From a virus (Duplodnaviria > Heunggongvirae > Uroviricota > Caudoviricetes): DNA of 19,706 nt. Position 1 is the first letter of the stretch. Each line of letters begins with the position of its first letter. The stretch is from positions 1 through 19,706 of IMG/VR virus record IMGVR_UViG_2617270940_000004; one strand, given 5' to 3'. Shown in pieces: positions 1 to 14,719 of the stretch. Made by a program: the position numbers and the translations under genes. The notes under the pieces are model-generated. The model did not search any database and was not told the DNA's origin. It saw only the letters and a list, made by a program, of their open reading frames with translations.

Positions 1-128
1 ATTTCAGCGCAGACAATCACATCGCTGCCCGGTTGTATGCGCGAGGTTACCGACTGCGGCCTGAGTTTTTTAAGTGACGTAAAATCGTGTTGAGGCCAAC
101 GCCCATAATGCGGGCAGTTGCCCGGCAT
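1..128 (-). CDS. insB: IS1 transposase InsB, 5' part only (truncated by window edge)
   Basis: Minus-strand reading from ATG at 128 gives [43 protein letters not shown], matching recalled InsB N-terminus; overlaps insA 3' end in another frame as in IS1. Confidence 0.8.
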
Positions 129-322
129 CCAACGCCATTCATGGCCATATCAATGATTTTCTGGTGCGTACCGGGCTGAGAGGCGGTGTAAGTGAACTGT
201 AGTTGCCATGTTTTACGGCAGTGAGAGCAGAGATAGCGCTGATGTCCGGCGGTGCTTTTGCCGTTACGCACCACCCCGTCAGTAGCTGAACAGGAGGGAC
301 AGCTGATAGAAACAGAAGCCAC
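47..322 (-). CDS. insA: IS1 transposase subunit InsA
   Basis: 91 aa [46 protein letters not shown]... matches recalled IS1 InsA (zinc-finger N-terminus, HTH C-terminus). Confidence 0.9.
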
Positions 323-557
323 TGGAGCACCTCAAAAACACCATCATACACTAAATCAGTAAGTTGGCAGCATCACCGGCTACGCAGAAGCAGCCAAACG
401 CCCCGTGGTTGCGCCGGAAGCAATCGGGCAAGGAAGTGCTGGTGAATAAAAACGAGCACCTTGCGGACGCTGTCGCATCGATTTACACCGGTATGCAAAC
501 TGATCAATTCCGTCAGGTTCGCGATGTTCTTGCTGGAATTTTATAAGTTGATAATTG

Positions 558-577
558 ATAGGTAAGTGCTTATCTAT
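558..577. promoter_or_regulatory. Family A palindromic site (putative operator), imperfect
   Basis: ATAGGTAAGTGCTTATCTAT; near-palindrome matching recurring consensus ATAGGTAAGTAYTTACCTAT. Confidence 0.4.
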
Positions 578-587
578 TACCATGAGA

Positions 588-610
588 CCACTATATATAG
601 TGGTTTTTTT
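588..610 (+). terminator. Rho-independent terminator candidate
   Basis: Perfect hairpin CCACTATATATAGTGG (588-603) followed by T7 run (604-610). Confidence 0.6.
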
Positions 611-811
611 AATTGGGCTACACATAATAAGCATCGTAAAACGTAACGCCCACCGAGCCGCTGCCAGCTGCATGAAGCGCTGACAAAGTTCGCTGTCGAT
701 TGCACTGGCCCGAGCCAGTTCGAATACCTCTAAGCCGAGTTTAACCACTTTGTGGCTTGGCGCTGCTGGGTCAAAATTGGCGTATCAAAAGAAGTCTAAA
801 GGAAAGAAAAC

Positions 812-1690
812 ATGAAATTTACGAAACTGACCGATCATCTGAAACTTGCCGCAGACAAACTCGTGGGGTTTAAACCAGAGCCTTACGAGTTGAATCCCGG
901 TTTCGGCAAGACAACGGAAAGCATCTACCTGATGGTTGACCAGTTCCACACACTGTTTCAGCACCCACGCCGTGCCATTCCAGATCCGGCATTACTGCGT
1001 CTGCGTGCCAAGCTGATCCACGAAGAAGCAGTTACTGAGGGCATCCCGGCAGCCAAAAATGGGGATATGACGGCACTGCTGGACGCGATGGCTGACTTCC
1101 TTTACGTGGGCGTCGGCACAATGGTGGCCATCAAAGGCGGCATCTCGACGGGCATGAGTTACTACACCCAAGAGCAGAGTGTTGATCGCTTCATCCACAC
1201 CATCATGGTTCCGGGCAACACGGTCTTTGACGATATGGCTATCCCGTTTGAAGAAGCAAAAGAAGCTGCATTAATGCTGAATGCGCTGGCTGACAAACTT
1301 GAAGCGAAGCCGATAAGCGATTCCGAATTGGTGCAGGAGCTGCGCCGCGTGATGAACAAAATCTACGTTGCCTGCATGATGACCTACCGTCTGGCTGATT
1401 TTCTCGGAATCGATATTGTTGAGCTGGTGGCAGAAATCCACCGTTCCAACATGACCAAGCTGTGGCCGGCTGACGCCGAAGAGCGTCGTGTGGCGGTAGA
1501 GAATTGCAAATATGACAAGGAAGACCTGGGCTTCCGCCATGCTGAAGGGACTGACATGATGATCGGTTTCAGGGTTTCTGATGGCAAGATCCTCAAATCT
1601 CCCACCTACAGCGATGTGGATCTGACTTGCTTTGTTGAGAAGGCGAAGTCCTCATCTCTTTACGAGATGGTAAAAAATAATTGTAAGTGA
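812..1690 (+). CDS. MazG/HisE-like all-alpha NTP pyrophosphohydrolase (two tandem repeats; possibly dimeric-dUTPase-like)
   Basis: 292 aa; RBS AAGGA 8 nt upstream of ATG. Contains LIHEEAVTEGIPAAKNGDMTALLDAMADFLY (EExxE ... DxxxD pattern typical of MazG/HisE-type pyrophosphohydrolases) and a second similar half (ELRRVMNKIYVACMMTYRLADFLGIDIVELVAEI). Family call from motif recollection only. Confidence 0.5.
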   Translation: MKFTKLTDHLKLAADKLVGFKPEPYELNPGFGKTTESIYLMVDQFHTLFQHPRRAIPDPALLRLRAKLIHEEAVTEGIPAAKNGDMTALLDAMADFLYVGVGTMVAIKGGISTGMSYYTQEQSVDRFIHTIMVPGNTVFDDMAIPFEEAKEAALMLNALADKLEAKPISDSELVQELRRVMNKIYVACMMTYRLADFLGIDIVELVAEIHRSNMTKLWPADAEERRVAVENCKYDKEDLGFRHAEGTDMMIGFRVSDGKILKSPTYSDVDLTCFVEKAKSSSLYEMVKNNCK

Positions 1691-1753
1691 GTACTTATCA
1701 TTATATATTGCCTTGGCGTGTTTTATTGTCCAAGTTCTTAATTGCTCATTGCA

Positions 1754-1783
1754 ATGGTGGCCGAAGAGCCACCATTTTTTTTT
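1754..1783 (+). terminator. Rho-independent terminator
   Basis: Stem ATGGTGGC / GCCACCAT with loop CGAAGA, followed by T9 run. Confidence 0.75.
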
Positions 1784-1833
1784 ACTCCCTTCCTAGCCTT
1801 ACACACTTCTGACAGATAAACTTGTATAAAATA

Positions 1834-1853
1834 ATAGGTATGCACTTACTTAT
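1834..1853. promoter_or_regulatory. Family A palindromic site (putative operator), degenerate
   Basis: ATAGGTATGCACTTACTTAT directly upstream of the ThyA-like gene; outer ATAGGTA...TTAT conserved. Confidence 0.4.
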
Positions 1854-1870
1854 CTTGTGTGAGGTTGATT

Positions 1871-2974
1871 TTGTCTATCCTACTGAATCGAGACTTTACG
1901 AACGGTCAGTTTGCCAGTGGTTCGTATGCCAAAGTGGTTGAAACGGTGCTCAACACTGGCGTTCACGCGGGTGATCGCACCGGAACCGGCACAAAAAGTG
2001 TTTCATATGTCCCTTCCTACTACATGCTGACGGGCGGATCTGTTCCACTTATCTCCGGAAAAGCCGTCAATCTGAAGCCGTTACTGGTTGAGCTGGAGTG
2101 GTATCTCAAAGGAACAGGCAACATCCAGTTCCTGAAAGACAATGGCGTCAAAATCTGGGATGCCTGGGCCGATGAAAATGGCGATTTAGGCCCGGTCTAT
2201 GGCAAGCAATGGCGTCGGTGGGAAGACACTCGCATCGTGAGCCATAGCGAGTATCTGCGCAAAATCGACACGTTCCGTGAGCGCGGGTACAAGGTCGAGG
2301 GGTATCTGGGCGTAAGTGAAGATCGCGTTGTGTTGTCCCGTGAAATTGACCAGCTACAGCGTATCGTTGACACGCTTCGCACCAACCCTACAGATCGTCG
2401 CATCCTGCTGAATGCCTGGAATGTTGGCGAACTGGAAGATATGAAGCTGCCGCCATGCCATTTCGTGTTTTCACTGTGGAGTCGCGAGCTGGACTTTGAG
2501 ACCCGACTGACTATGGCCACCGACATTGGCATACAGCACAACCGCCACGGCCACGAGTCCATGTACACCCAGATGCTGTGTCTTCTGGAAAGAGATGGCG
2601 GCATTACTGAGAACATGCTGGACGAGCTGGGCATCCCGAAACGCATTCTGAACTCATGCCTGGTTCAACGCAGTGTCGATACCTTTGTTGGTATGCCGTT
2701 CAACATCGCCGGTTACGGCATTCTCACCCACTTCCTCGCGAAGATCACCGGCCACATGGCTGGCGCATTCGTGCATTTTGGCTTTGACGTTCATCTCTAC
2801 GACAACCACATGGAAGGCGTTGAGGAACTGATGAAGCGCGAGCCGCCCAAAGAGTCCGACCCGGTTGTCATCTTCCCGCATGAATGGGCCGAACTGGACG
2901 ACTTCAAATGGGAAGGTGTGCAGGTGTGCGGCTACAGCCCTCTTCCGTGGATCAAGGTTCCAGTGGCGGTGTGA
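1871..2974 (+). CDS. thyA: Thymidylate synthase family protein (ThyA homologue with two large insertions and an N-terminal extension)
   Basis: Contains DRTGTGT, IWDAWADENGDLGPVYGKQWRRW, DRRILLNAWNVGELEDMKLPPCHFVF (catalytic Cys in PCH), QRSVDTFVGMPFNIAGY and HLYDNHM, all matching recalled E. coli ThyA blocks. Start uncertain: ORF track gives GTG 1859, but GAGG at 1860-1863 looks like the SD for TTG 1871 (TTG 1865 also possible). Confidence 0.85.
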   Translation: MSILLNRDFTNGQFASGSYAKVVETVLNTGVHAGDRTGTGTKSVSYVPSYYMLTGGSVPLISGKAVNLKPLLVELEWYLKGTGNIQFLKDNGVKIWDAWADENGDLGPVYGKQWRRWEDTRIVSHSEYLRKIDTFRERGYKVEGYLGVSEDRVVLSREIDQLQRIVDTLRTNPTDRRILLNAWNVGELEDMKLPPCHFVFSLWSRELDFETRLTMATDIGIQHNRHGHESMYTQMLCLLERDGGITENMLDELGIPKRILNSCLVQRSVDTFVGMPFNIAGYGILTHFLAKITGHMAGAFVHFGFDVHLYDNHMEGVEELMKREPPKESDPVVIFPHEWAELDDFKWEGVQVCGYSPLPWIKVPVAV

Positions 2975-2975
2975 T

Positions 2976-3389
2976 ATGGCCAGAGGGATGTATGTGTTGT
3001 GTGAAATTGAAGGTGTGCTGGCGAGAGCCAGCCATCGCAAAGCAGTGCCTGATGCGGATGCAGGCGCTCTTATTGCCGGTGATGAACTCATCTTTCCCAC
3101 CAGCCGCATGTTGCGTGGTTTTGCTCGCTCCGGTGCTGAAGTGGTGCTTATCAGTAGTCGTCCGGAAGCGCTCGAAGGCCCAACCAAGCGCTGGCTGAAG
3201 GACTTCGGCATTGATTATGACTGGCTCCACCTGGTTCCGCGCGGTGTCAGTTTTGAAACCCATATCAAGCGCACGCTGGCAGAGCACAAAGGCGACTTAC
3301 TTATCGCCGCACTGGTTCATGATCCGCGTCTGCGTTCTGCGCTGGCAAATTCTCACCAGCGACCAACCATCTATGAGGTAAGCCAATGA
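2976..3389 (+). CDS. HAD-superfamily, NT5C-like 5'(3')-deoxyribonucleotidase-fold protein with non-canonical motif I (ExE instead of DxD)
   Basis: ATG at 2976, 1 nt after the ThyA stop; stop overlaps DHFR start (ATGA). MYVLCEIEGVLA aligns with the HAD/NT5C motif hhhhDxDGVL; later blocks (VVLISSRPEALEGPTKRWLKDFGIDYDWLHLV, LLIAALVHDP) fit HAD motifs II-IV. Weak, motif-level call. Confidence 0.4.
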   Translation: MARGMYVLCEIEGVLARASHRKAVPDADAGALIAGDELIFPTSRMLRGFARSGAEVVLISSRPEALEGPTKRWLKDFGIDYDWLHLVPRGVSFETHIKRTLAEHKGDLLIAALVHDPRLRSALANSHQRPTIYEVSQ

Positions 3390-3862
3390 AGATGATTGCA
3401 GCTGTCGGCCGCAACTATGAAATCGGCATTGGCAACGAACTTCCCTGGCGTTGCCCGACCGATCTGAAACTGTTCAAACAACTCACCAAAAACGCCACTG
3501 TCGTGATGGGACGTAAGACGATGGAAAGTCTTAAACGCCCGCTGCCAGAGAGCCATAACCTCGTTTTGACGCGCTCTCGTGGCTATATCCCCAATGGTTT
3601 CTACCCCGCTGGCATCGATGACGTTTTAAAACTACCAGATCCGGTCTGGGTGATTGGTGGCGGGCAGATTTACTCGCTCTTTATGCCACACGTTGAAGAG
3701 ATCTGGCTGTCGCATATTGGCGTGGATGTGTCGGGCGCGGATGCGTTCTTCCCGGCGCCAATGATGCGTTCTTTAGGGTTCGTACCAGTCGAAACGGCTT
3801 ATACCCAACGTGCAAATGAGGATGAGCCTGGCTTTTTGCAGATCGTATACAGAAGGTCGTAA
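3386..3862 (+). CDS. folA: Dihydrofolate reductase
   Basis: 158 aa; MKMIAAVGRNYEIGIGNELPWRCPTDLKLFKQLTKNATVVMGRKTMESLKRPLP parallels the DHFR N-terminus (IAA..IG..MPW..P.DL..FK..T....V.MGR.T.ES...PLP); VIGGGQIY matches the glycine-rich NADPH loop. GAGG RBS 7 nt upstream. Confidence 0.85.
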   Translation: MKMIAAVGRNYEIGIGNELPWRCPTDLKLFKQLTKNATVVMGRKTMESLKRPLPESHNLVLTRSRGYIPNGFYPAGIDDVLKLPDPVWVIGGGQIYSLFMPHVEEIWLSHIGVDVSGADAFFPAPMMRSLGFVPVETAYTQRANEDEPGFLQIVYRRS

Positions 3863-4506
3863 TGGATTACCGGATTGGAATCACTGGCGCACAGGGCAGT
3901 GGGAAAACAACCCTGGCAAGGTACATCGATGCGCACTATGGCATTCCGTATGTGGATGCTGGTGTTGGCAAGCTGATGAGCAGTCTGGGGGTGAAGGTTG
4001 GCGAGCGTTTGCCCCTTTACGAGCGTCTTCAGGTTCAGATGGAGATTGCCAGACACATCGAGATGATCACCCGCGGCGTTGAAGGTTTTGTCATCGACCG
4101 CACGCCAGCCGATGTCATGGCTTATACGCTTGACCTGGTCGGCCAGACCAACGAAGACCGCTGCATCGAGCTGGCTCTCGACATTGAGCAGTTTTGCCAC
4201 AAAGCGACCATTTCCAACTTCAATGCTATAGCGGGTCTTCGCCCGGGCGTTGAGCTTTCCAGCAAAGATCTCGCGCGTCCCCAGCGAGGATCGCTTGACC
4301 GTCTCTATGTTGCTCGCATCGATGCACTTATGTGTGGCGAGCTGACGAAAATTAGCGCCCTTCCCCATACCGGCGATTTGCAGGTTTTCATTATCTCTGA
4401 AAAGTGCCGCACGGTTGAGGCGCGAGCCAGATCGGTATTGCGTGTGCTGGAAAGAGCCACTGAAAACATCGAGAGCCGTATAACAGGACGAGTGACCTTC
4501 CACTGA
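3862..4506 (+). CDS. P-loop nucleotide kinase, T4 gp1-like deoxynucleoside monophosphate kinase candidate
   Basis: Walker A IGITGAQGSGKTTLA at N-terminus; FVIDRTPADVMAY resembles the PDTRQDHE region of T4 gp1 as recalled. Start overlaps DHFR stop (TAATG). Confidence 0.55.
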   Translation: MDYRIGITGAQGSGKTTLARYIDAHYGIPYVDAGVGKLMSSLGVKVGERLPLYERLQVQMEIARHIEMITRGVEGFVIDRTPADVMAYTLDLVGQTNEDRCIELALDIEQFCHKATISNFNAIAGLRPGVELSSKDLARPQRGSLDRLYVARIDALMCGELTKISALPHTGDLQVFIISEKCRTVEARARSVLRVLERATENIESRITGRVTFH

Positions 4507-4569
4507 ATGTTGTTCCCCTGTTGGGCAGTGTGACAATAAGACACGCGAAATGAATTGAGGAAAAACAGA

Positions 4570-4989
4570 ATGATAGATGAACTTCCCCTGTCGGATGAAT
4601 TAGATCGCAAAGCGATTGAAGCACTGATCCGTATTGCTGACGAACAATCCCGTTCCTTAATGAGTGAACGTGAAGCACGTCTGGCTATCCGAGCAGTGTT
4701 TGAGTCCGTTCAAGGTCTTGTTGGGGAAGAGGTTGGTGAAGCCATTAATGCGGCGATGTCGCAATTCAATGGCGGCACCAAGCGCTCTCTGTTTCCTATG
4801 CATCTCAAACTCTCGGGCGGTACGGTTTTTTATGTGTCCGTTTGCCTGGAGACTAACCAAATCCAGCTCCTCAACACGTCAACGGGCGAATGGCGTGAGC
4901 CGGTCGTCTGCGAAAGCGGCGAGGACGCACTAAAAAAGGCTGCTCAGTTTGTGCGTGGCGCACTGCTGAAAGGCGCGAAGAAGCTGTAA
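4570..4989 (+). CDS. Hypothetical protein
   Basis: ATG at 4570 with GAGGA 8 nt upstream (ORF track TTG start at 4555 lies inside the SD); 139 aa, no recognisable motif. Confidence 0.5.
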   Translation: MIDELPLSDELDRKAIEALIRIADEQSRSLMSEREARLAIRAVFESVQGLVGEEVGEAINAAMSQFNGGTKRSLFPMHLKLSGGTVFYVSVCLETNQIQLLNTSTGEWREPVVCESGEDALKKAAQFVRGALLKGAKKL

Positions 4990-4998
4990 GGAGTACCA

Positions 4999-5553
4999 AT
5001 GACCACGATTGTCGGTGGCGTCGATATTGAGTCCACGGGGCTGGACTTCACATCCGGCCACAAAATTATCGAAATCGCGATATCTCGTTATGAACTGGAA
5101 ACCCAGAAGCGCATTGACAGCCTTGAGATGCGCTTCAACCCGCGTCGTAGCATCGATCTGAAGGCGCAGGCTGTACATGGTATCTCTCTGGAAGAACTGG
5201 CTGCTGAACCGCTGTTGGCTGATCACGCAGGTAAGATTGCTGCATATATGGGGGCATGTAGCGCGTTAGTCGCCCATAACGGGGAGGCTTTTGACCTTCC
5301 GTTCATTCGCCACGAGTTCGGAAGCTATGGAGTGAAATTGCCAGAAATCCCTCTGGTTGACACTCTATTTTCCCTGTGGGCTACCGAGGATGGGAAGCGC
5401 CCACGCCTGGAAGAGCTGGCATTCTCACTTGGGTTCACTTACGACCGTGAGAAAGCCCACAGTGCTCTCTACGATACTGATCTGATGATGCAGTGTTTCT
5501 TCAAAGCCCGAGAGAAATACGGCTTCTTCAAACTCCCATTCGAAAGCGCCTGA
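4999..5553 (+). CDS. DnaQ-like (DEDDh) 3'-5' exonuclease
   Basis: Exo I DIESTGL, Exo II ALVAHNGEAFDLPFI, Exo III HSALYDTD; AAGGAG RBS 5 nt upstream of ATG. Confidence 0.7.
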   Translation: MTTIVGGVDIESTGLDFTSGHKIIEIAISRYELETQKRIDSLEMRFNPRRSIDLKAQAVHGISLEELAAEPLLADHAGKIAAYMGACSALVAHNGEAFDLPFIRHEFGSYGVKLPEIPLVDTLFSLWATEDGKRPRLEELAFSLGFTYDREKAHSALYDTDLMMQCFFKAREKYGFFKLPFESA

Positions 5554-5568
5554 TGGCGCTTTTTCTTT
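5543..5568 (+). terminator. Rho-independent terminator candidate overlapping the exonuclease stop codon
   Basis: Stem AAAGCGCC / GGCGCTTT with loop TGAT, followed by TTTTTCTTT. Confidence 0.5.
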
Positions 5569-5681
5569 GCCTCCAGTTCCTTTAACTGCCTGTAGTTATG
5601 ACTTTTCTGCCTGATAGGTTTTGCCAGAATAAGCTCAACCAAAACGCGGAAATGCACCAACGAAAACATAAGGAGTTAAAA

Positions 5682-6554
5682 ATGAGCGCAGTTTCAAACA
5701 TTGTTAAAAACGATGACCTGGATGAATTGACTGCAATGCTGCAATCTCTCGAAGAACCGGTTCTGAAAGCTGCGAAAATGAGCGGTATCGACGAGATCGA
5801 CGATCTTCTCTCTGGTCTGGATGATGCAATCGCAAAACCAGTCGAGGCGGTGGCAGATGAAGTCATGAATGTCAGCTCTACCGGCGATCTGAGTGGCGTT
5901 CTGGAAGAGCTTGAGATTGCACACGAATCGGTGAAGGTCGAGGAGCCAGAGCGTGGCCCTATTGCGGAGATAGTGGACGAGCCAACACCTGAACTTGATG
6001 CTCGAAGCGCTGAGACCACCGATATAGCTCCAACGCTTTTACCTTCAGTGGAGTCTGGGCCTAAACCTGAAGAAGAGCAGCCAAAACACCAGAAGGCACA
6101 ATCAAAGCGTGCGCCGACCAAACCTCGCTTCACGCTGGAGGGTAAGGATGAATCGTTCTATGTGACAGCCGGTCTGGATAGTGAGCGCTTTACTGCCGCA
6201 TTCGAAGGCGCGCCGATCAAAGCGAAAGACAAAATCTTAAACCTCCTGAACTGGTTTAGTGGTGGCCCGGAAATCAGCGTCTACACGGTAATCGCAATGC
6301 GCCATATTCTTGATACGAACACGGCGACCAGCAATAGCATTAAACTGGCGCTAATGAGCTACCCGGAGAAACCATATCCACTTAACACGGCTTCGACTCA
6401 GGCTGGCCAGATGATGGCTGTGTTTCCGGCCACAGGCATTGCCACCAGAGAAGGTGGAAATCTAACGCTTAATAAAGAGTCGCCGATCGTCAAAAAATTC
6501 ATAGCGGAGTATTCCATTGAACAATGTTCCTCTGCACGATCTAAAGCACCCTGA
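5682..6554 (+). CDS. Hypothetical protein with acidic, low-complexity N-terminal half and a globular C-terminal domain
   Basis: ATG at 5682 with AAGGAG 7 nt upstream (ORF track start 5598 is an upstream TTG). N-terminal ~150 aa rich in D/E/P/S/A; C-terminal part ordinary composition. Confidence 0.55.
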   Translation: MSAVSNIVKNDDLDELTAMLQSLEEPVLKAAKMSGIDEIDDLLSGLDDAIAKPVEAVADEVMNVSSTGDLSGVLEELEIAHESVKVEEPERGPIAEIVDEPTPELDARSAETTDIAPTLLPSVESGPKPEEEQPKHQKAQSKRAPTKPRFTLEGKDESFYVTAGLDSERFTAAFEGAPIKAKDKILNLLNWFSGGPEISVYTVIAMRHILDTNTATSNSIKLALMSYPEKPYPLNTASTQAGQMMAVFPATGIATREGGNLTLNKESPIVKKFIAEYSIEQCSSARSKAP

Positions 6555-6601
6555 GAGCTTTAGGACGCTGGGTAAGCTCATTGCATACCCAGCATCGATA
6601 A

Positions 6602-6653
6602 AACGCGCCAGAGAGCTTCCCGTTTGCGAATCTGGCGCGTTCTTCTTTGTTTG
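6602..6653 (+). terminator. Rho-independent terminator candidate (preceded by a second hairpin at 6568-6594)
   Basis: 11 bp perfect stem AACGCGCCAGA / TCTGGCGCGTT with 18 nt loop, followed by CTTCTTTGTTTG. Confidence 0.55.
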
Positions 6654-6677
6654 CTATCCGTTGGATTAAATGAAAAA

Positions 6678-6697
6678 ATAGGTAAGTATTTACCTAT
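6678..6697. promoter_or_regulatory. Family A palindromic site (putative operator)
   Basis: ATAGGTAAGTATTTACCTAT, near-perfect 20 bp palindrome 12 nt upstream of the methyltransferase start. Confidence 0.55.
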
Positions 6698-6709
6698 CAG
6701 AGTAAGGTA

Positions 6710-7303
6710 ATGATCGCAGCCGAAAAAATCAAAAAGCGAGAGCGTGATGCCTCTCTTCGCGACCTTTGGCGCACACCGCAGTGGTTGTTTGTCGCCATCC
6801 AACGTTACATAGGCGTAAAGTTCGATGTGGACGTCGCCTGCAACAAAGATAATGCTCTCCTGACGAACTTTATCGGTGTTGAGCGTGATGCGCTCAAGTG
6901 CAGTTGGGGAGAACCTGGCACTGTGGCGTTCCTTAACCCGCCCTACTCCAAAATCACCCCCTGGATAGATGCAGCCATTCGCGAGCAGGCGCGTGGAGTG
7001 ACGACGGTCATGCTGATACCACAATCCCTCGATACGCAGTGGTACGAGCGTGCGGCTGAATGCGCCAACGAAACCGTCATCTTGTCTGGCGGCCGCGTGG
7101 CGTTCGTTGAGCCGGATGTTGAACTTGGGCTGGTGGAGGTGAACATCAACCCTGGTGGCAGCATGTTGCTTATCTTCCGTGGCTACTGTCAGGAAGCTGG
7201 GCACACCATCAGCAAGATACCGCTGGCGGTGATGAAAAAGCTGGGTGGTTATGACCCTGCCAATGTTGTCAGGAAGAAGAGACCACGTAAAAAGGCAGCG
7301 TAA
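6710..7303 (+). CDS. Orphan DNA N6-adenine methyltransferase (phage Dam-like family, NPPY motif)
   Basis: 197 aa; DLWRTPQWLF ... FDVDVACN ... GTVAFLNPPYS follows the layout of phage-type N6-adenine MTases; no restriction endonuclease gene adjacent. Confidence 0.75.
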   Translation: MIAAEKIKKRERDASLRDLWRTPQWLFVAIQRYIGVKFDVDVACNKDNALLTNFIGVERDALKCSWGEPGTVAFLNPPYSKITPWIDAAIREQARGVTTVMLIPQSLDTQWYERAAECANETVILSGGRVAFVEPDVELGLVEVNINPGGSMLLIFRGYCQEAGHTISKIPLAVMKKLGGYDPANVVRKKRPRKKAA

Positions 7304-7505
7304 ACACCAGTCTGGGAGTTAGTTTGAGAACCTGCTTCCGTATATATAAATAACTAAGTACTAATTATTAATATATACAGACGCAGGCTTTTTAAGACGT
7401 GATTTCCAAACAACTCCCAGACCGTTTTACACCTCCAGAACCCACTGGAGCCCCTCTCCAGACGCTCTAGAATCGATTTTATGAACCACAGTAAGGAAAA
7501 CTATC

Positions 7506-7736
7506 ATGGTATACCCGACGAACGTCGTAGCGCTCGTTGAGAGCGATTTTCTGGCCACAGTGCGCGACATGATGAAAGATCGCGATAAGGCTTTCAGTCT
7601 CTACGAATGGTCGCTCAAATGTCTTCATTCAGGCGAGCACAAAGAGCTGGTGGAGCAGCTGTTAGGGGAACTCATCAATGAGGTGTTTGCCCTGAACGTC
7701 CAGCTTCATGGGCGAGAAATTAATCAATCAATATAA
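7506..7736 (+). CDS. Hypothetical small protein (76 aa)
   Basis: ATG with AAGGA 8 nt upstream; stop codon overlaps the family A palindrome at 7736-7755. Confidence 0.5.
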   Translation: MVYPTNVVALVESDFLATVRDMMKDRDKAFSLYEWSLKCLHSGEHKELVEQLLGELINEVFALNVQLHGREINQSI

Positions 7737-7755
7737 TAGGTAAGTACTTACCATT
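7736..7755. promoter_or_regulatory. Family A palindromic site (putative operator)
   Basis: ATAGGTAAGTACTTACCATT; core GGTAAGTACTTACC is a perfect 14 bp palindrome. Confidence 0.55.
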
Positions 7756-8330
7756 CAAAACGCCACTAACCAGTGATACAATCTATCCGCTTCCGGATAC
7801 TTTCGGCAGCTCGACCTGATGGGTGGGGGATAGCGTCACTGGCGTCAGGTTTAAAAAAGCTCACTACCAGCGTAGAACCGGCACCGTTTAGGGGTTGGGG
7901 AAGGGGGAACCAAAGTGGGCAGAGAGAAGGGTCACTTTATGATTGTCGAGTCTGGAGTGTTTCGAGAGGTTGAATCCAGTACTCCCCTTCATAAAGTGTG
8001 GGAAGATCTCGGTTCTGGGGTGCTGTCATCCATAACTTCCCAAGCCTAAGCTGGCAGTAGACTTAGGTCATAACTTTTCAGGTTATGAAACGACCAGGTT
8101 GGTGAGGAAATTTTGTACTCACCTCCCTGGGAGAGTATTACCTGAAAAGACAACCTCTCACTTCGTTCGAGGTGAACTTCACTCACTTCGTTCGTTCAGT
8201 TCAGGTTTTATTAAAACCTGTTCTGGGAAGTAATTTTTCTTTTCTAAAAAATTTTTAATATTTACACGCACGCGTGCGCACACGCGCGAGGGGAAAAAAA
8301 ATCGTCGCGGCGCGCGATTCTGGAGCCAAA

Positions 8331-8939
8331 ATGACGACCAAGACCCCAGCCCGGCAACATACTGGCTGCCGCACGAAGTCCAAAGCCAGATACCAAACCC
8401 ACCAGCAATCCCGTACCAACTTCAAAACCCCCGTAGTCGAGTTCAATCCCCAGCTCAAAACCGTAAAAGTATTCAGTGATGGCTCCTGCCTCAAAAATCC
8501 GGGCGGGCCGGGCGGTTACGGCATCGTTCTCCAGTATCGAGGCGAAGAGCGCGAGCTTTCTGAGGGCTTCCACAGCACGACCAACAATCGGATGGAGATG
8601 ATGGGCGCCCTGATTGCGCTGGAGCGTCTGAAGTACCCCTGCAACGTGATCCTGCATTCCGACAGCCAGTATCTTAAAAACGGCATGACGCTCTGGATGA
8701 AAGGCTGGAAGCGTAACGGATGGATCACGTCTGAGAAGAAGCCAGTCAAAAACGTGGATCTCTGGAAACGTCTCGACGCGGCCGCCAGTCGTCATAATGT
8801 CCGCTGGAAGTGGGTTAAAGGCCATGCAGGTCATCGCGAGAACGAAATGTGTGACCGTCTGGCGAAGATCGCCGCCTATTCCGCAGCTGATATGCCTCAC
8901 AAGCATGACATTGGGTTTTTGTCACAAAAAGATAAGTAA
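8331..8939 (+). CDS. rnhA: Ribonuclease HI homologue with ~45 aa basic N-terminal extension
   Basis: [75 protein letters not shown] and [20 protein letters not shown] match recalled E. coli RNase HI blocks. Start set at ATG 8331 (GGAG 5 nt upstream); ORF is open from 8274. Confidence 0.8.
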
Positions 8940-8951
8940 GTATTTACCTAC
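8932..8951. promoter_or_regulatory. Family A palindromic site (putative operator)
   Basis: ATAAGTAAGTATTTACCTAC overlapping the RNase H stop codon (TAA 8937-8939). Confidence 0.5.
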
Positions 8952-9031
8952 TATAATAAATCAGGTATCTTATAAATCGTCAGGATGACGAAGTACCGGT
9001 TAGGTACGGTTCCAGGATGGAACGCCAAAAG

Positions 9032-9052
9032 GCGGCTGGCTTGGCCAGCCGC
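9032..9052 (+). terminator. Hairpin, weak terminator candidate
   Basis: Stem GCGGCTGGC / GCCAGCCGC with loop TTG, followed by AACTCTTTCT (poor U-tract). Confidence 0.3.
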
Positions 9053-9081
9053 AACTCTTTCTGACACTGAATGGAATCCAC

Positions 9082-9582
9082 ATGGCCCGTCAAACGTCTT
9101 TCACTTCTTTCAATAAACGTCCCCGTTCAATTCGCCTGGTGCTGACCGAGCTGTTTAGTGGTCGTGTTTCCGCACGCCTTACGGAACTGGAAGAACGAGT
9201 GTTTGAACTGGAGAAGCGCATTAATGCGCAAGCTACCGCCATAGCTAATCTGGGCACGACAGTAGGCATGGAGAAGGTGCGTAATAGCGTCGCTTCTCGT
9301 GTGTTGCGTGAAACCCGGACACACAAGGACAGTTCTCATGGAAAATTTTCAACGAAATCGACTGAAGCCAATGGCCTACGGAGTGATTTTGGCAACTCTG
9401 GCAGCGATTACCGTACCAGCCGGTCAGAGCCTTTTGATGCCGGGCACAGCTACTTCCACTGCCACCACAGCCTTGCAGATGACACCCCTGCCCGAACGAC
9501 CTCCTGTCTCTCTGGATGGGATGCTGATGGACACGATTCCAGCTCGACCTGCGACTCCGGATCTTCCTTCTGCTGTGACTGA
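9082..9582 (+). CDS. Hypothetical protein with predicted coiled-coil segment; 3' half doubtful
   Basis: 166 aa ORF; residues ~30-75 (RLTELEERVFELEKRINAQATAIANLG) look coiled-coil; C-terminal third is S/D/G/C/H-rich and overlaps an alternative-frame ORF (9338-9595), so the 3' extent is uncertain. Confidence 0.35.
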   Translation: MARQTSFTSFNKRPRSIRLVLTELFSGRVSARLTELEERVFELEKRINAQATAIANLGTTVGMEKVRNSVASRVLRETRTHKDSSHGKFSTKSTEANGLRSDFGNSGSDYRTSRSEPFDAGHSYFHCHHSLADDTPARTTSCLSGWDADGHDSSSTCDSGSSFCCD

Positions 9583-9595
9583 GGCTATTGTATGA
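9338..9595 (+). CDS. Hypothetical small membrane/secreted protein (alternative frame to 9082-9582)
   Basis: ATG 9338 with AAGGA 9 nt upstream; hydrophobic segment MAYGVILATLAAITVPA; stop overlaps start of next ORF (ATGA at 9592-9595). Confidence 0.4.
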   Translation: MENFQRNRLKPMAYGVILATLAAITVPAGQSLLMPGTATSTATTALQMTPLPERPPVSLDGMLMDTIPARPATPDLPSAVTEAIV

Positions 9596-9780
9596 AATGG
9601 AACTTCCAGAAATTCACCTTGATGATTGTTGGCTTTACCGTTTTTTTGTTTAGCGGCTGGATCATGAATCTGGTGAAACTTGTGAACGATGGTGATCTCC
9701 AGTCTCATGCCGGAGTGACACTTGCGCGTGTCGTGGGCATTTTCGTTGTTCCGGTGGGCGGCATCCTCGGGTTCTTTTGA
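9592..9780 (+). CDS. Hypothetical small membrane protein (62 aa, two predicted TM helices)
   Basis: GAGG 7 nt upstream; FTLMIVGFTVFLFSGWIM and VVGIFVVPVGGILGFF hydrophobic stretches. Confidence 0.45.
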   Translation: MKWNFQKFTLMIVGFTVFLFSGWIMNLVKLVNDGDLQSHAGVTLARVVGIFVVPVGGILGFF

Positions 9781-9802
9781 TGCTGAATGATTTTCTGCAT
9801 TG

Positions 9803-9820
9803 TTAAAACAAATTGTTTAG
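9803..9820. promoter_or_regulatory. Family B palindromic site (putative operator)
   Basis: TTAAAACAAATTGTTTAG; half-sites AAACAA / TTGTTT around a central base. Confidence 0.5.
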
Positions 9821-9846
9821 ACAAATGATTAATGAGAGTTAACAAC

Positions 9847-9870
9847 AAGGGCCGCTGACGGCCCTTTTGT
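9847..9870 (+). terminator. Rho-independent terminator candidate
   Basis: Stem AAGGGCCG / CGGCCCTT with loop CTGA, followed by TTGT. Confidence 0.55.
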
Positions 9871-9886
9871 ACTGAATGGAAAACGT

Positions 9887-10702
9887 ATGTTTGAGGTAAC
9901 TGCACACGCTCCCAGCACCACAGGCTTACATGCCAGGCCATCGATGACCAGTCAGGAGATCGCCGAAATGGTCGGCAGTCGCCATGACAGCGTAAAACGC
10001 ACCATTGAAAGACTCGCTAAATCCGGCGTTATTACTTTTCCACCAATGGTGGAAAAGCCCACTGCCGGGCGTCCGGCTACCTTTTACTTGTTCGAAGCCG
10101 AACAGGGTAAGCGCGACAGTATCGTTGTCGTGGCACAGCTTTCTCCTGAATTTACCGCACGTCTTGTTGATCGGTGGAGAGAGCTTGAATCCATGTTTGC
10201 CTACCACGGAACGCCTGCTATTCCGCGTACCTATAAAGAAGCGCTGGTTCATTTGCTGCGCCAGGTTGAGGAAAACGAGCGTCTGGAGAGTGAGAACGAG
10301 GCGTTGGGCGTAGCACTATCCAACGCAAAGCCAAAAGCCATTCTCATGGACACCATTTGCGGCACTGCTGATGAACTTTATGGGTTGAATGAAGCCGGTC
10401 GCATTCTCGGCACGTCCGGGGCTGTTCTGGGTGCGCTGATGGACTCGCTGGGTGATGTGTACGTTAAGCGCAAATACACCACTGTTAACCGCCAGTTCCT
10501 CAAGATCTTCATTGACCGCGGATATGGCAAAAACGTTGTCATCGGAAACGGTCGCAACCAGGCCAAGTTCACCTTTAAAGGGCTTTGCTTTGCAGCTGTG
10601 AAACTAATTGCAGCCGGGTTGATTGCCTCCAGCGCCATTGAATATGAGCCGTGTCGTGAGCATGTCGAACGTGCAATGAAGGAATCCAAACGTCTTCATT
10701 GA
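9887..10702 (+). CDS. Phage antirepressor-type regulator (Rha-like N-terminal domain + ANT/KilAC-like C-terminal domain)
   Basis: N-terminal MTSQEIAEMVGSRHDSVKRTIERL resembles the Rha family; C-terminal ILGTSGAVLGALMDSLGDVYVKRKYTTVNRQFLKIFIDRGYGKNVV resembles the ANT domain. Start uncertain (9887 or 9944). Confidence 0.55.
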   Translation: MFEVTAHAPSTTGLHARPSMTSQEIAEMVGSRHDSVKRTIERLAKSGVITFPPMVEKPTAGRPATFYLFEAEQGKRDSIVVVAQLSPEFTARLVDRWRELESMFAYHGTPAIPRTYKEALVHLLRQVEENERLESENEALGVALSNAKPKAILMDTICGTADELYGLNEAGRILGTSGAVLGALMDSLGDVYVKRKYTTVNRQFLKIFIDRGYGKNVVIGNGRNQAKFTFKGLCFAAVKLIAAGLIASSAIEYEPCREHVERAMKESKRLH

Positions 10703-10773
10703 CCGTCAGTATGGACGTCCACCTTTATGTAGCGTTTGGCCACCTTTTCAGTCACGTCACAATAACACAATTG

Positions 10774-10791
10774 AGAAAACAACTTGTTTAA
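10774..10791. promoter_or_regulatory. Family B palindromic site with conserved upstream ATAACA box (putative promoter/operator)
   Basis: AGAAAACAACTTGTTTAA preceded by CAATAACACAATTGAG; lies ~20 nt upstream of the 10811 start codon. Confidence 0.55.
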
Positions 10792-10810
10792 AAACATAAG
10801 GAAAAAACAC

Positions 10811-11383
10811 ATGTGCGACAAATGCAAAAAAACTAATGCCAAAGTTGAAAGCGTGATTAAAAAAGTTGGTGCGGCCGAACTGGTTGAGATCATGGGTCTT
10901 GTGGCTGGTCACGAAGACGACGCCTCCCCTATTGACCGCCTTTTCAGCGTTCTCAAGTTCTCAAGCATGATTGATGATCCGATTGAAATTGTGATGCTGG
11001 CGCGTCATTTCGGCGAAGCGTATCTGGAAGAGAAAGAACGCGCCGACAAACTTCAGGCAACTCTGGAAATGGTAAGCAAGCCGAAGTGCTCACCGGATTC
11101 AGTCAAGGCAGATGAAACCAACGCCAGCAAAGATCGTGAAATCGCCGGGTTGAAGTTTTCTCTGGCGATGTTGCTGGCCGCCTTCAAACTGATGTCTTCC
11201 CAGGCTGGATTCAAAATGCCTGAGCTGAACAGCGACGATCCGATGGCCGTTCGCCAGCTGCTGGGGGCAATGGCCGACCAGCTTGACGACACCAAGAGCC
11301 GTCTTGAAGACATGATGCGCGAGCTGACCCATCGCTACGACCTGAACAAACAGCCGCAAAAGATGCAGCCTTTACATCATTAA
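10811..11383 (+). CDS. Hypothetical protein
   Basis: ATG 10811 with AAGGA 8 nt upstream (ORF track TTG start 10784 lies inside the operator motif); 190 aa, N-terminal CDKCKK. Confidence 0.5.
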   Translation: MCDKCKKTNAKVESVIKKVGAAELVEIMGLVAGHEDDASPIDRLFSVLKFSSMIDDPIEIVMLARHFGEAYLEEKERADKLQATLEMVSKPKCSPDSVKADETNASKDREIAGLKFSLAMLLAAFKLMSSQAGFKMPELNSDDPMAVRQLLGAMADQLDDTKSRLEDMMRELTHRYDLNKQPQKMQPLHH

Positions 11384-11388
11384 TATAT

Positions 11389-11405
11389 AGGGGGCAAAGC
11401 CCCCT
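11389..11405. terminator. Bidirectional hairpin between convergent genes
   Basis: AGGGGGC AAA GCCCCCT perfect stem-loop between the stop of 10811-11383 (+) and the stop of 11409-11828 (-). Confidence 0.5.
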
Positions 11406-11408
11406 ACT

Positions 11409-11828
11409 CTACTTTGCGGCGTCTAACAATAAGCCGCAATTTTCGCTCATGTATGCCGCAGTTGCCGGATTGCCTCTGTCATTATTCGAATTGTTCATTT
11501 CAGGGTGAGCGTCCCAGGCCACTGATTCCTGAGATGATAGATAGACGGCAAAGTCGACGATTTCATCATCTCCGGTTTTAACGTTGCCAAGCAATTCATT
11601 TGCCTTTCTCCAGTGCTTCAGCGCGAGAATTCTGAACTGTTTTGCATTTTCAGCAGGCACTGCACTGGATTTGTCTGTGTAGATATTCGATATGTCGGCA
11701 TAAAGAGCGCATTTAACATAGCTGGTTGCCCTGCCGGTCTCTTTAAAACGTTGCTCTGTGTTGTTGGCGTAGACATTCACAGCAAAAGCGCTGGCAATTC
11801 CCAGCAATATAATTTTCTTCATCATCAT
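11409..11828 (-). CDS. Hypothetical secreted protein with signal peptide
   Basis: N-terminus MMMKKIILLGIASAFAVNVYA is a signal-peptide-like sequence; the only substantial minus-strand gene outside the IS elements; AT-rich; no clear SD. Confidence 0.5.
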   Translation of the reverse strand: MMMKKIILLGIASAFAVNVYANNTEQRFKETGRATSYVKCALYADISNIYTDKSSAVPAENAKQFRILALKHWRKANELLGNVKTGDDEIVDFAVYLSSQESVAWDAHPEMNNSNNDRGNPATAAYMSENCGLLLDAAK

Positions 11829-11971
11829 TACTCAATAAGGAGGCGACAAATATCTTACGTGTAGTTGTCAGTTGAGTATTAAGCAAACTCAATAAACTTA
11901 TAAGTATCTCCCTGTGCAGCCTGTGAATCCTTATTTATTACCTACTCAATTTTGAAATAATAACACCAACA

Positions 11972-11989
11972 AGAAAACAATTTGTTTAA
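11972..11989. promoter_or_regulatory. Family B palindromic site with conserved upstream ATAACA box
   Basis: AGAAAACAATTTGTTTAA preceded by TAATAACACCAACAAG; ~10 nt upstream of the 12000 start codon. Confidence 0.55.
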
Positions 11990-11999
11990 TGGTGCAGTC

Positions 12000-13685
12000 A
12001 TGAATACAGCCCTTTCCATCATTGACGCTATCACTCCAAACACTGATATCGACTACCGGCAGGAAATGAACGTTATCCACGAAATTGTGGCCGAGTGCGA
12101 GAAAGAGATCGCATTCATGCATCAGGTTCACGACTTCGTTTATGGCGACGAACGCCACAGCATGATTAACCGTCTACTGCGGCTCAATCACCGGCCGGAC
12201 GACGAGCGCACACGCTTTAACAGAACCTGGCTGGACAAAGTCGACCTGGAATGGGTGAAACAAAATATCTGGGCCGAGTACTGGAAGAAGGTCACGGATA
12301 TGACCAACGTTCTGTTGATCATGCCAGCATCCCGCCGCGACGAGTGGCGTGAACAGTTTATCGAGGGCAAGCAGGAAACGATCAAGACTGACAGAACTGG
12401 CTATCAAATGAAGGTTAAAGAGTTCGTTGGTGTACCTGAGTTCAAAGCAGAAACGGTCATACCAACGATGCTTAATTTGCTGAATGACAGGCACAAATAT
12501 CTCTCTGAGCGCGTGTATGGCTTGTTTAAGGCGTTGAGTCCTGCTCACAAGACCAATAAGACGAACGGCTTCAGCGAGCGTCTGATCATCGCCGACTGCA
12601 TTTCCGATTTCTGGCGGGACAGCGTCAGCGTTAACTACCGGAAAGAGGATTACATAGACGACCTGCGCGTCATGTTGCATTTCTTTGCACACAAAGAATT
12701 TATCACCATCAATCGCACGGCCGAGATGCTGTCAGCTGCGTATCGAGCAAATGACTGCCAGACCGGCGACTGGATGAATGTCGACGGAAACCTGATGCGT
12801 GTGAAGATGTTTAAGAACGGCAACGTTCACTTTGAAATACATCCTGACGTAGCCTGGAAGCTGAATGAGGTGCTGGCTTACAGTATGCCCGCTGCAATCC
12901 CGGCTCCATGTCGTACTGCGCCCAAAACACGGGCACCAAAACAGTTCGGGTTAATCCAGAAGACGATCTCCGAGCCGGTGCGTACTGCGCTTCGCGACGG
13001 GCGATCTGGCAATGACAAACGCGTATGGTACTTCTCTGATTCCGGTCTCCAGAAGTCACAGGTGGAAGAGCTGGAGCGTACACTGAGCTTTATTGGCGGC
13101 GTGCAGGAGAACAAGCACTGGCAGTTCCCGTATGAGATCGGCCATACGCTCAATACGATTGTGGCCACCGGCGTAATACCGGATACAAAATCACACCAGT
13201 TCTACCCTACCCCGCGTTTGATAGCGGAGTACGTTGCCAGAGCCATTGAGCTGAAACCAGGTGAGAAGCTGCTGGAGCCTGAAGCCGGGCGTGGAGATCT
13301 GCTGGCCTGCATCGACGCCAACCCGGAAGACGTCACCTGCATAGAAGTCGCGCCTCTCTTTGCTGATATCCTGCTTGGCAAGGGGTACACAAATACGGTC
13401 TGCTGCGACTTCATGAAGTGGTCTGAGAACAACGCAGGCTATCAGTTCGACAAAATCGTCATGAACCCACCCTACTCTCTCGGTCGTCACAGAGAGCACA
13501 CATTGGCCGCGCTGGGGCATCTGAAAGTTGGTGGGCGTCTGGTAGCAGTGCTGCCGGGCGACGCGCCAATTCTAAACTGGATGACGCTGGATAATTACGT
13601 TTATGCCAAAGGGAAGTCGTTTACTAACGTGTTTGAAGACACCGGGATTACTGTCAGCGTATACGTTTTTAAACGCGTTAAATGA
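12000..13685 (+). CDS. Large orphan N6-adenine DNA methyltransferase (C-terminal SAM-dependent MTase domain, N-terminal ~400 aa domain of unknown function)
   Basis: C-terminal FYPTPRLIAEYVA ... LLEPEAGRGDLL (motif I) ... DKIVMNPPYSLG (motif IV NPPY). No adjacent restriction gene. Start set at ATG 12000. Confidence 0.7.
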   Translation: MNTALSIIDAITPNTDIDYRQEMNVIHEIVAECEKEIAFMHQVHDFVYGDERHSMINRLLRLNHRPDDERTRFNRTWLDKVDLEWVKQNIWAEYWKKVTDMTNVLLIMPASRRDEWREQFIEGKQETIKTDRTGYQMKVKEFVGVPEFKAETVIPTMLNLLNDRHKYLSERVYGLFKALSPAHKTNKTNGFSERLIIADCISDFWRDSVSVNYRKEDYIDDLRVMLHFFAHKEFITINRTAEMLSAAYRANDCQTGDWMNVDGNLMRVKMFKNGNVHFEIHPDVAWKLNEVLAYSMPAAIPAPCRTAPKTRAPKQFGLIQKTISEPVRTALRDGRSGNDKRVWYFSDSGLQKSQVEELERTLSFIGGVQENKHWQFPYEIGHTLNTIVATGVIPDTKSHQFYPTPRLIAEYVARAIELKPGEKLLEPEAGRGDLLACIDANPEDVTCIEVAPLFADILLGKGYTNTVCCDFMKWSENNAGYQFDKIVMNPPYSLGRHREHTLAALGHLKVGGRLVAVLPGDAPILNWMTLDNYVYAKGKSFTNVFEDTGITVSVYVFKRVK

Positions 13686-13704
13686 GAGGTAAATACTTAC
13701 CTAA
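13685..13704. promoter_or_regulatory. Family A palindromic site (putative operator)
   Basis: AGAGGTAAATACTTACCTAA, starting at the last base of the methyltransferase stop codon. Confidence 0.5.
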
Positions 13705-13747
13705 TCTATGTAAGAATATAGTGACTATATGATAAGAGAAAAAACAC

Positions 13748-14437: not shown

Positions 14438-14673
14438 ATGATCTGCTTGTCGAGCGAGTCTCCGCTTTTGTTAAGTCCCCGCTGAATAATCCCCTCACCC
14501 GCTGTGAGCAGATGGAGCTGGCAAGGTGGTTTCTGCGTATCCATGAGCAGATGGAAGTTTTTAAACAGTTGCCGGATCTGCCCATTACAGACGGCCAAAT
14601 TCAGTGTGCCACTTCAGTACGGTCGACGATGACAACGACGCAAACCTGCTTTTCGTCAAATCCGAAATCATAA
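14434..14673 (+). CDS. Hypothetical small protein, possibly frameshifted at its 3' end
   Basis: ATG 14434 with GAGAGG upstream, translationally coupled to the previous gene; C-terminal ~25 aa look non-protein-like while another frame looks protein-like (see findings). Confidence 0.4.
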   Translation: MNDLLVERVSAFVKSPLNNPLTRCEQMELARWFLRIHEQMEVFKQLPDLPITDGQIQCATSVRSTMTTTQTCFSSNPKS

Positions 14674-14719
14674 AGTTGCGCAGGGAGAGAGAGAAATCGA
14701 CGCAGAGCAGGCCCGCAAT

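Follow-up and report, generated by a model that had tools for sequence, protein, structure and literature searches.

A PNKP-type HAD protein lacking the catalytic aspartate, encoded between thyA and the dihydrofolate reductase gene in SSU5-type phage-plasmids

Here, we examined a 137-amino-acid protein, denoted protein X below, whose gene lies between those for thymidylate synthase (ThyA) and dihydrofolate reductase (DHFR) in a 19,706-nucleotide stretch of Caudoviricetes DNA (the window; positions 1 to 19,706 of IMG/VR record IMGVR_UViG_2617270940_000004). Our analysis reveals that protein X descends from small, stand-alone HAD-superfamily phosphatases belonging to the polynucleotide kinase-phosphatase (PNKP) branch, and that its gene, although deprived of the codons for key catalytic residues, is conserved and evolves under purifying selection. 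We favour, with moderate confidence, a reading in which the protein is a non-catalytic accessory of the thymidylate-synthesis module that binds a phosphorylated ligand, a partner protein, or both.

The provenance of protein X is apparent from sequence profiles and from its predicted structure. A phmmer search of the PDB placed its VLCEIEGVLA segment over VICDLDGTLS of Pnkp1 (4xrp; E = 7e-5), and the likeness of this segment to HAD motif I greatly exceeds what chance would produce. Canonical small relatives with an intact DxD motif, including P0061 with MHIVCDIDGVLADASHREHL, came from an exhaustive search of 1.8 billion representatives; three word-indexed protein searches gave only the SSU5-type family and one canonical protein (P0079). 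The exhaustive search also returned P0054, a protein of 2583 amino acids with 8 matching stretches, which we discarded as spurious because it is a repetitive surface protein of the type IX secretion system (T9SS). When a profile built only from the X family was compared with a profile of 13 canonical DxD relatives using hhalign, the two matched with a probability of 99.7% (E = 2e-26), in a register that sets cEid.VlA..HR over cDiDGTLad..HR, with E10 over the first aspartate and position 12 over the second. A mixed profile matched Pnkp1 (4xrp) at 1.9e-27 and T4 Pnkp (1ltq) at 5e-17.

The AlphaFold model of protein X, predicted from an alignment of 21 sequences (pLDDT 90.6, pTM 0.86), has the Rossmannoid alpha/beta core with parallel strands that defines the HAD superfamily, motif I being located at the end of strand 1, ahead of a squiggle/flap. 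Its strands, at residues 5-10, 55-63, 83-87, 108-114, and 131-134, are separated by helices. In Foldseek searches of the PDB, Pnkp1 (4xru/4xrp, TMq 0.82) and the phosphatase domain of T4 Pnkp (5uj0, TMq 0.81, TMt 0.78) are near the top, followed by plant VSP, class C acid phosphatases, and the LNS2 domain of Nir2. Every listed match in the PDB and BFVD is of the HAD type, those in BFVD being phage "polynucleotide kinase/phosphatase" proteins. Thus, protein X belongs with the PNKP-type phosphatases, which rank above other HAD branches. Profiles and fold comparison (TM ~0.8) agree on the HAD relationship that a preliminary description of the window, made from the nucleotide sequence, had put forward. 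The same description had assigned the protein to the NT5C-type deoxyribonucleotidases, and this part has to be abandoned. The Pfam search produced no match of X to PF06941 (NT5C) at E <= 1, no NT5C structure occurs among the top 50 Foldseek matches of either the X model or the model of a distant orthologue from Moellerella (P0060), and every significant match is to a HAD protein of the PNKP type or of the class B/C acid phosphatases. A kinship with 5'(3')-deoxyribonucleotidases could appeal only to a generic hhhhDxDG(V/T)LA likeness and to the nucleotide-metabolism context, and we consider it exceedingly improbable.

Alignment of the profile of X to T4 Pnkp provides the residue equivalences listed in Table 1. 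Both glutamates of the CEIEGVLA segment occupy the exact positions of the motif I aspartates, as the preliminary description had claimed. In the T4 enzyme, R176, R213, D254, and D187 are reportedly essential for 3'-phosphatase activity, according to mutagenesis by the Shuman laboratory. As described in PMC3592404, D165 accepts the phosphoryl group and also ligates Mg, D167 serves as general acid/base, the contacts to the phosphate are made by S211 and K258, and D278 is a further Mg ligand. Among the features of a catalytically competent HAD enzyme, protein X has the Ser/Thr of motif II at the end of strand 2 (S60) and lacks both the nucleophilic aspartate of the motif I DxD and the Mg2+-binding acidic pair of motif IV, D116 being one residue out of register. 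The R-x-x-G-D-x-R-x-D loop is shortened, so that D254 has no counterpart. K98 is present at the motif III position in X and is not conserved among orthologues, where the column holds A, T, S, D, N, H, M, or R. The residues H115 and D116 are replaced by a pair of serines in 16 close relatives and by C-A, G-C, and similar pairs in distant ones, and columns 114-116 read V-S-S, C-A-G, G-C-S, and the like among orthologues. Of the downstream blocks previously likened to HAD motifs II-IV, retention is supported for motif II (S60, with R62); it is not supported for motifs III and IV, with an unconserved K98 at the former and V114-H115 in place of the acidic pair at the latter.

Conservation was assessed in ~45 full-length family members and, additionally, in 80 sequences comprising that of the window and those of 79 IMG/VR loci. 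Position 10 is glutamate, never aspartate, in every member of the E-type, including all 80 of the latter sequences, and is encoded by GAA in some lineages and by GAG in others. Three more distant members carry threonine (P0060 and P0077) or alanine (P0055) instead; P0060 and P0077 occupy the same slot between ThyA and the DHFR and AAA_28 genes, and P0060 is predicted to fold alike (pLDDT 92.9), its model matching the PDB structures that X matches. At position 12, only the acidic residues D and E occur, with E found solely in the subclade of SSU5, Escherichia coli, and Klebsiella. Conservation of the ExE motif, which the preliminary description had singled out as worth checking, is real for its first glutamate within the E-type orthologues, whereas it fails in the three distant members and, at the second glutamate, gives way to a choice of acidic residues. 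R21 and D36 are kept both in the family and in canonical DxD relatives, and T70 and W73 are likewise common to both. Together with R44 and D82, R21 and D36 are invariant in all intact members except P0016, which has an adjacent deletion. R or K is found at position 62 throughout, apart from two members with I (P0044) or V (P0075). Position 60 is usually S or T, with C, D, E, A, or G in some orthologues. All three orthologues without E10 (P0055, P0060, and P0077; loci L005-L007, 5001-5438) have D or E there, as do a few orthologues that retain E10, so that, where E10 is missing, the acidic residue at position 60 may represent a relocated pocket carboxylate. Because this swap is seen in one clade only, it counts as a single evolutionary event.

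The family has also gained residues of its own. R44, within the P41-T42-S43-R44-M45 motif, is invariant in the X family while being variable in the canonical enzymes, and G48, G53, D82, and P130, the latter within H-x-[RK]-P, are further family-specific invariants. Given the HAD topology, the start of the helix, where P-T-S-R-M is located, is predicted to face the old active site, as are the C-terminal ends of strands 1, 2, and 4.

With E, T, or A at the position of the nucleophile and with neither the motif IV Mg ligand nor the motif III lysine conserved, the canonical two-step aspartyl-phosphate mechanism, judging from these substitutions, cannot run in protein X. In the DxDxT phosphatase Nem1, D-to-E replacement at either motif I position abolishes activity (PMC13543951). 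Protein X would, therefore, qualify as a pseudo-phosphatase in the usual sense of a homologue of active phosphatases that is devoid of residues essential for catalysis. The loss of the catalytic aspartate and of the Mg-binding residues makes it most likely that the protein binds something instead of hydrolysing it. The pocket itself probably still does something, because the acid at position 12, R21, D36, S/T60, R/K62, and the T-S-R cap are all constrained. It is this combination of catalytic losses with a constrained pocket that leads us to favour a binding or partner-docking accessory. Of the two options left side by side in the preliminary description, an inactivated pseudo-phosphatase or an enzyme with unusual chemistry, the former is the one supported by the Thr/Ala variants, by the losses of motif IV, the D254 loop, and the motif III lysine, and by the Nem1 precedent.

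An enzyme using non-canonical chemistry is an alternative that deserves weighing all the same. Under this scenario, protein X would be a HAD-fold hydrolase or transferase whose reaction passes through no aspartyl-phosphate intermediate. Its substrate could, for instance, be a nucleotide, the general base and general acid being supplied by Glu10 (or, in the Thr/Ala variants, by the acid at position 60) and by D/E12. The maintenance of E10 in E-type orthologues through two different codons, while position 12 toggles between D and E, would be readily accommodated, as would the acid at position 60 in the sequences without E10, the retention of the pocket-lining R21, D36, and R/K62, and the conservation of the new T-S-R motif. 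However, a position occupied by E, T, or A cannot furnish a common nucleophile, the equivalents of D277/D278 and K258 are unconserved, the D254 loop is deleted, a D-to-E change inactivates the one characterised DxDxT enzyme mentioned above, and the exchange between positions 10 and 60 carries the weight of only one event. We consider continued enzymatic activity of this kind unlikely.

Existing annotation points in a different direction. Protein X is the orthologue of SSU5_082, annotated as a "hypothetical protein", which is also its RefSeq name. In PHROGs, it matches phrog_5387 (7e-87; annotated as of unknown function) and, more distantly, the "polynucleotide kinase" phrog_415 (1.9e-8), and no NCBIfam model matches it. 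In two public phage records, one of Cyrano and the other of ST13-OXA48phi12.3 (Table 1), the orthologue is labelled "Polynucleotide kinase" or "polynucleotide kinase/phosphatase". Were these names taken at face value, protein X would be an authentic polynucleotide 3'-phosphatase or polynucleotide kinase involved in end healing, and the closest structures and profiles are indeed Pnkp phosphatase domains. Yet no P-loop 5'-kinase domain is present in X, the HAD domain accounting for all 137 amino acids, and the match to the Pfam model HAD_PNKP (PF25109; 18.4 bits, E = 0.0025) falls under the gathering cut-off of 27.6, compared with 43.2 bits for the canonical relative P0061. Combined with the missing nucleophile, Mg ligands, and D254 loop, which already contradict it, these data make an end-healing function very unlikely. 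Given that X possesses neither a kinase domain nor the catalytic aspartates, the naming of its orthologues as polynucleotide kinases is an over-annotation.

The gene for protein X is under purifying selection. In pairwise Nei-Gojobori comparisons of unsaturated pairs, the ratio of nonsynonymous to synonymous substitution rates (dN/dS) is 0.06-0.24, comparable to the values for the neighbouring genes (0.07-0.17 for ThyA; 0.05-0.09 for DHFR, apart from one noisy close pair). Over longer distances, dN reaches 0.7-0.9 for X and about the same for the AAA_28 protein, compared with 0.34-0.45 for ThyA and 0.45-0.6 for DHFR. The gene order NrdAB-MazG-ThyA-X-DHFR-AAA_28-hypothetical protein-DnaQ recurs in all retrieved orthologous loci. 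X lies immediately upstream in 79 of the 80 IMG/VR loci found via the AAA_28 protein, where it is represented by 31 distinct, intact sequences. The only contig without an intact copy, L082 (IMGVR_UViG_2869154154_000004), has an inversion or rearrangement breakpoint inside X, corresponding to window coordinate 3258, and a truncated AAA_28 match. The ThyA stop and the X start are joined as TGAtATG, and the X stop overlaps the DHFR start as ATGA. Both junctions recur in SSU5, Cyrano, pJN2-26, and the Klebsiella-type loci L002 and L003, with a short spacer or a different overlap in more distant orthologues. With these arrangements, the ThyA, X, DHFR, and P-loop kinase-like genes are, in this order, translationally coupled. 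Low dN/dS, conserved synteny, and the start/stop overlaps bear out the suggestion, made initially from the position of the gene inside a coupled operon, that it is functional. The possibility of a decaying pseudogene or a spurious open reading frame (ORF) could draw on a few database members that look frameshifted (P0003 and P0017-P0019), but is refuted by the selection and intactness just described, by the confident fold prediction, and by the kept start/stop coupling. Its probability is practically nil, and it is, along with the NT5C and end-healing assignments, effectively excluded.

Tight coupling and invariant synteny could also be reconciled with a purely structural adaptor, in which the pocket would be irrelevant and the protein would, for instance, bridge ThyA and DHFR or target a host protein. 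A second conserved cluster, R51-S52-G53-x-E55, G78, Y81-D82, and H-x-[RK]-P130, which the model suggests to be located at the sheet edge opposite the pocket, might constitute the corresponding interface, and the fast divergence of both X and the AAA_28 protein relative to ThyA is compatible with this possibility. However, part of this cluster (the glycine and the Y-D pair) is also found in canonical enzymes and may be merely structural, and an irrelevant pocket would leave the strong conservation of E10, D/E12, R21, D36, R/K62, and T42-S43-R44 unexplained. An adaptor of this kind seems to us a doubtful proposition, if one to be kept in mind.

Returning to the non-catalytic accessory that we favour, the following scheme can be proposed. 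Having lost the nucleophile, the motif IV aspartate pair, and the D254 loop, with the motif III lysine released from constraint, and having gained the P-T-S-R-M helix cap, protein X would use the retained pocket residues, namely, the acid at position 12, R21, D36, S/T60, and R/K62, to bind a phosphate-bearing ligand, plausibly a deoxynucleoside monophosphate (dNMP) of the pathway from deoxyuridine to deoxythymidine monophosphate (dUMP/dTMP). It may, in addition, dock onto a partner protein. Translational coupling would keep its production in constant proportion to that of ThyA, DHFR, and the P-loop kinase-like protein, and X would act as an accessory subunit (regulatory, protective, or bridging) of the thymidylate module of the phage-plasmid.

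Several considerations weigh against this scheme. Glu10 is strictly invariant down to ~35% identity, and exactly the three sequences that have lost it carry an acid at position 60; together, these observations suggest that the pocket needs a carboxylate, which would fit residual or altered catalysis or metal binding too. The proximity of T42-S43-R44 to the pocket is deduced from the topology of the model. The connection of X with nucleotides comes from gene context and translational coupling only, and its putative physical association with ThyA, DHFR, and the kinase-like protein is likewise proposed from gene context. The canonical relatives in other phages are located outside nucleotide-metabolism clusters. 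In phage IsaakIselin, the gene for the canonical stand-alone PNKP-type phosphatase lies among small uncharacterised early genes, and such neighbours render this context uninformative with regard to an ancestral role in nucleotide metabolism.

A bolder version of the accessory hypothesis would make X an obligatory non-catalytic subunit of a thymidylate "metabolon", whose pocket (E10, D/E12, R21, R62, and T42-S43-R44) would sense or hold dUMP/dTMP and bridge ThyA, the trimethoprim-resistant DHFR (dfrA51-type), and the P-loop kinase. Protozoa fuse thymidylate synthase to DHFR, and, if the metabolon existed, a dead phosphatase would recreate what protozoa reach by this fusion. We regard this version as improbable, and the invariant glutamate could equally support a new chemistry, not involving aspartyl-phosphate, on the HAD scaffold.

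Table 1. Coordinates of protein X, its active-site residues, and the surrounding features (window positions, except for the last two rows)
Feature	Position	Strand	Remarks
Partial IS1 element	1-377		left edge of the window; InsA ORF 47-322, minus strand
MazG/PRA-PH-like nucleotide pyrophosphohydrolase	812-1690	+	first gene of the conserved nucleotide-metabolism block of the window
Thymidylate synthase ThyA	1859-2974	+	PF00303 3e-79; TGA stop 2972-2974, one base before the ATG of X
Coding sequence of protein X, 137 amino acids	2976-3389	+	ATG start; N-terminus MARGMYVLCEIEGVLA
Motif I codons E10-I11-E12	3003-3011	+	GAA ATT GAA in place of DxD; CEIEGVLA in exact DxDG(T/V)LA register; E10 = T4 Pnkp D165, E12 = T4 Pnkp D167
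R21	3036-3038	+	T4 Pnkp R176
D36	3081-3083	+	T4 Pnkp D187
Family-specific motif P41-T42-S43-R44-M45	3096-3110	+	N-terminus of helix 40-51 (model), after the flap
Motif II S60-S61-R62	3153-3161	+	T4 Pnkp S211-G212-R213
K98, motif III position	3267-3269	+	T4 Pnkp K258
Former motif IV V114-H115-D116	3315-3323	+	T4 Pnkp D277-D278-R279
Dihydrofolate reductase DHFR	3386-3862	+	PF00186 1.7e-33; ATG overlaps the TGA of X (ATGA 3386-3389)
P-loop nucleotide-kinase-like protein	3862-4506	+	AAA_28 1.4e-9; start overlaps the end of the DHFR gene
Conserved 144-amino-acid protein, phrog_5373	4555-4989		between the kinase-like gene and the DnaQ-like exonuclease gene
X orthologue labelled as polynucleotide kinase, Cyrano CYRAN_73	L008 3001-3414
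X orthologue so labelled, MK422451.1	54296-54706

The window is a piece of an E. coli SSU5-type phage-plasmid, an assignment that follows from its identities to SSU5 and to E. coli plasmids. Positions 1800-4600 are 98.2% identical at the nucleotide level to Salmonella phage SSU5 (72.5-75.3 kb) and 76-78% identical to SSU5-like phage-plasmids of Klebsiella and Escherichia, and positions 378-4600 share >99% identity with many E. coli plasmids of ~108-130 kb. Elements of this type are widespread among plasmids of E. coli, Klebsiella, and Salmonella, the gene block occurring in at least 204 PLSDB records. Homology to SSU5 starts only at base 378, right after the partial IS1 element. Relative to SSU5, nrdA-nrdB (~3.5 kb; compare L001 1410-4888) is absent at window positions 667-691, where just the first and last few codons are kept. 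In many E. coli plasmids, the sequence on both sides of this junction runs colinear with that of the window (>99% identity), and the loss is therefore a feature of the lineage rather than an assembly artefact.

Among the neighbours of X, the window ThyA is ~370 amino acids long, and its Pfam match is split into two stretches, which implies a putative internal insertion somewhere between residues 209 and 262. The E. coli ThyA has 264 amino acids, so that of the window is roughly 100 longer. The AAA_28 protein, whose gene is translationally coupled to the DHFR gene and which diverges as fast as X, is a candidate for the dTMP or dNMP kinase of the module, although its similarity to the (d)CMP, adenylate, and thymidylate kinase families is weak and generic. 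We also considered it as the missing kinase half of a split PNKP and rejected this idea, the P-loop matches being just generic ones to nucleoside monophosphate kinases, CoaE, and adenylate kinase. The phrog_5373 protein, for which no Pfam or NCBIfam match was found, is at the same position in all orthologous loci examined, with the DnaQ-like exonuclease gene downstream. The DHFR gene of the window is, with 98% at the DNA level, closely homologous to the sole DHFR gene of SSU5, which has been named dfrA51 and confers trimethoprim resistance in E. coli; resistance DHFRs of the dfrA51 and dfrA50 types have been reported in SSU5-type phage-plasmids (PMC12217456).

Neither the fold nor the family of origin is new, and HAD pseudo-phosphatases are an established concept, with examples described in eukaryotes. 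What appears to be undescribed is a PNKP-derived variant without the nucleophile that is conserved, selected, and located between thyA and a clinically relevant DHFR gene of widespread enterobacterial phage-plasmids; to our knowledge, there is no prior description of a PNKP-branch pseudo-phosphatase in a viral nucleotide-biosynthesis operon. At a minimum, the annotation of protein X should be corrected. With E, T, or A at the nucleophile site and the phosphate-binding arginines kept, the family offers a clean test case of pseudoenzyme evolution. Furthermore, X is directly upstream of, and coupled to, the trimethoprim-resistance DHFR of SSU5-type phage-plasmids (PMC12217456), and, owing to the ATGA overlap, manipulating or regulating X would affect the DHFR gene. 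Whether X modulates thymidylate or folate flux, or DHFR expression, is relevant to phage-plasmid replication and to the resistance phenotype.

Among the known systems, PNKP phosphatase domains, such as those of T4 Pnkp (1ltq/5uj0) and Capnocytophaga Pnkp1 (4xrp), have the same minimal-cap HAD fold as the model of X (TM ~0.8), and the stand-alone phage phosphatases of this type (PF25109, phrog_415), at ~135-150 amino acids, are of the same length. The shared blocks comprise hhhC-x-h-x-G(V/T)LA...HR, D36, (S/T)-x-R, T-x-x-W-L, and G-h-x-Y-D. Unlike the PNKP-type enzymes, X has Glu (Thr/Ala in some orthologues) instead of the nucleophilic Asp, no Asp-Asp in motif IV, a lost or shortened R-P-x-G-D-x-R-x-D loop, an unconserved motif III Lys, and a deletion of the W-x-A-F cap segment; it displays the new P-T-S-R-M and C-terminal H-x-[RK]-P motifs, scores under the Pfam threshold, and is encoded at a constant place, between thyA and the gene for DHFR. 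NT5C (PF06941) and X have in common the HAD superfamily and a motif I of the generic DxDGVL-like kind, and the part that NT5C enzymes play in dNMP metabolism would be in keeping with the neighbouring genes, but neither profiles nor fold ranking detected a specific relationship. By analogy, the closest mechanistic precedent for the proposed binder is the LNS2 domain of Nir1/Nir2, crystal structures of which are among the Foldseek matches of both the X and P0060 models. This HAD domain is devoid of the first aspartate and of a Mg ligand but keeps the second aspartate, and its phosphomonoester ligand, phosphatidic acid, is bound and left unhydrolysed (PMC12419160). LNS2 and X thus have in common the HAD fold, the loss of the first motif I aspartate and of a Mg2+ ligand, and an acidic residue at the second position. 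By contrast, LNS2 is a membrane-associated domain within a large multidomain protein of eukaryotes and has a lipid ligand, and it belongs to another (lipin/FCP-like) HAD branch, so that the likeness to protein X is mechanistic rather than a family relationship.

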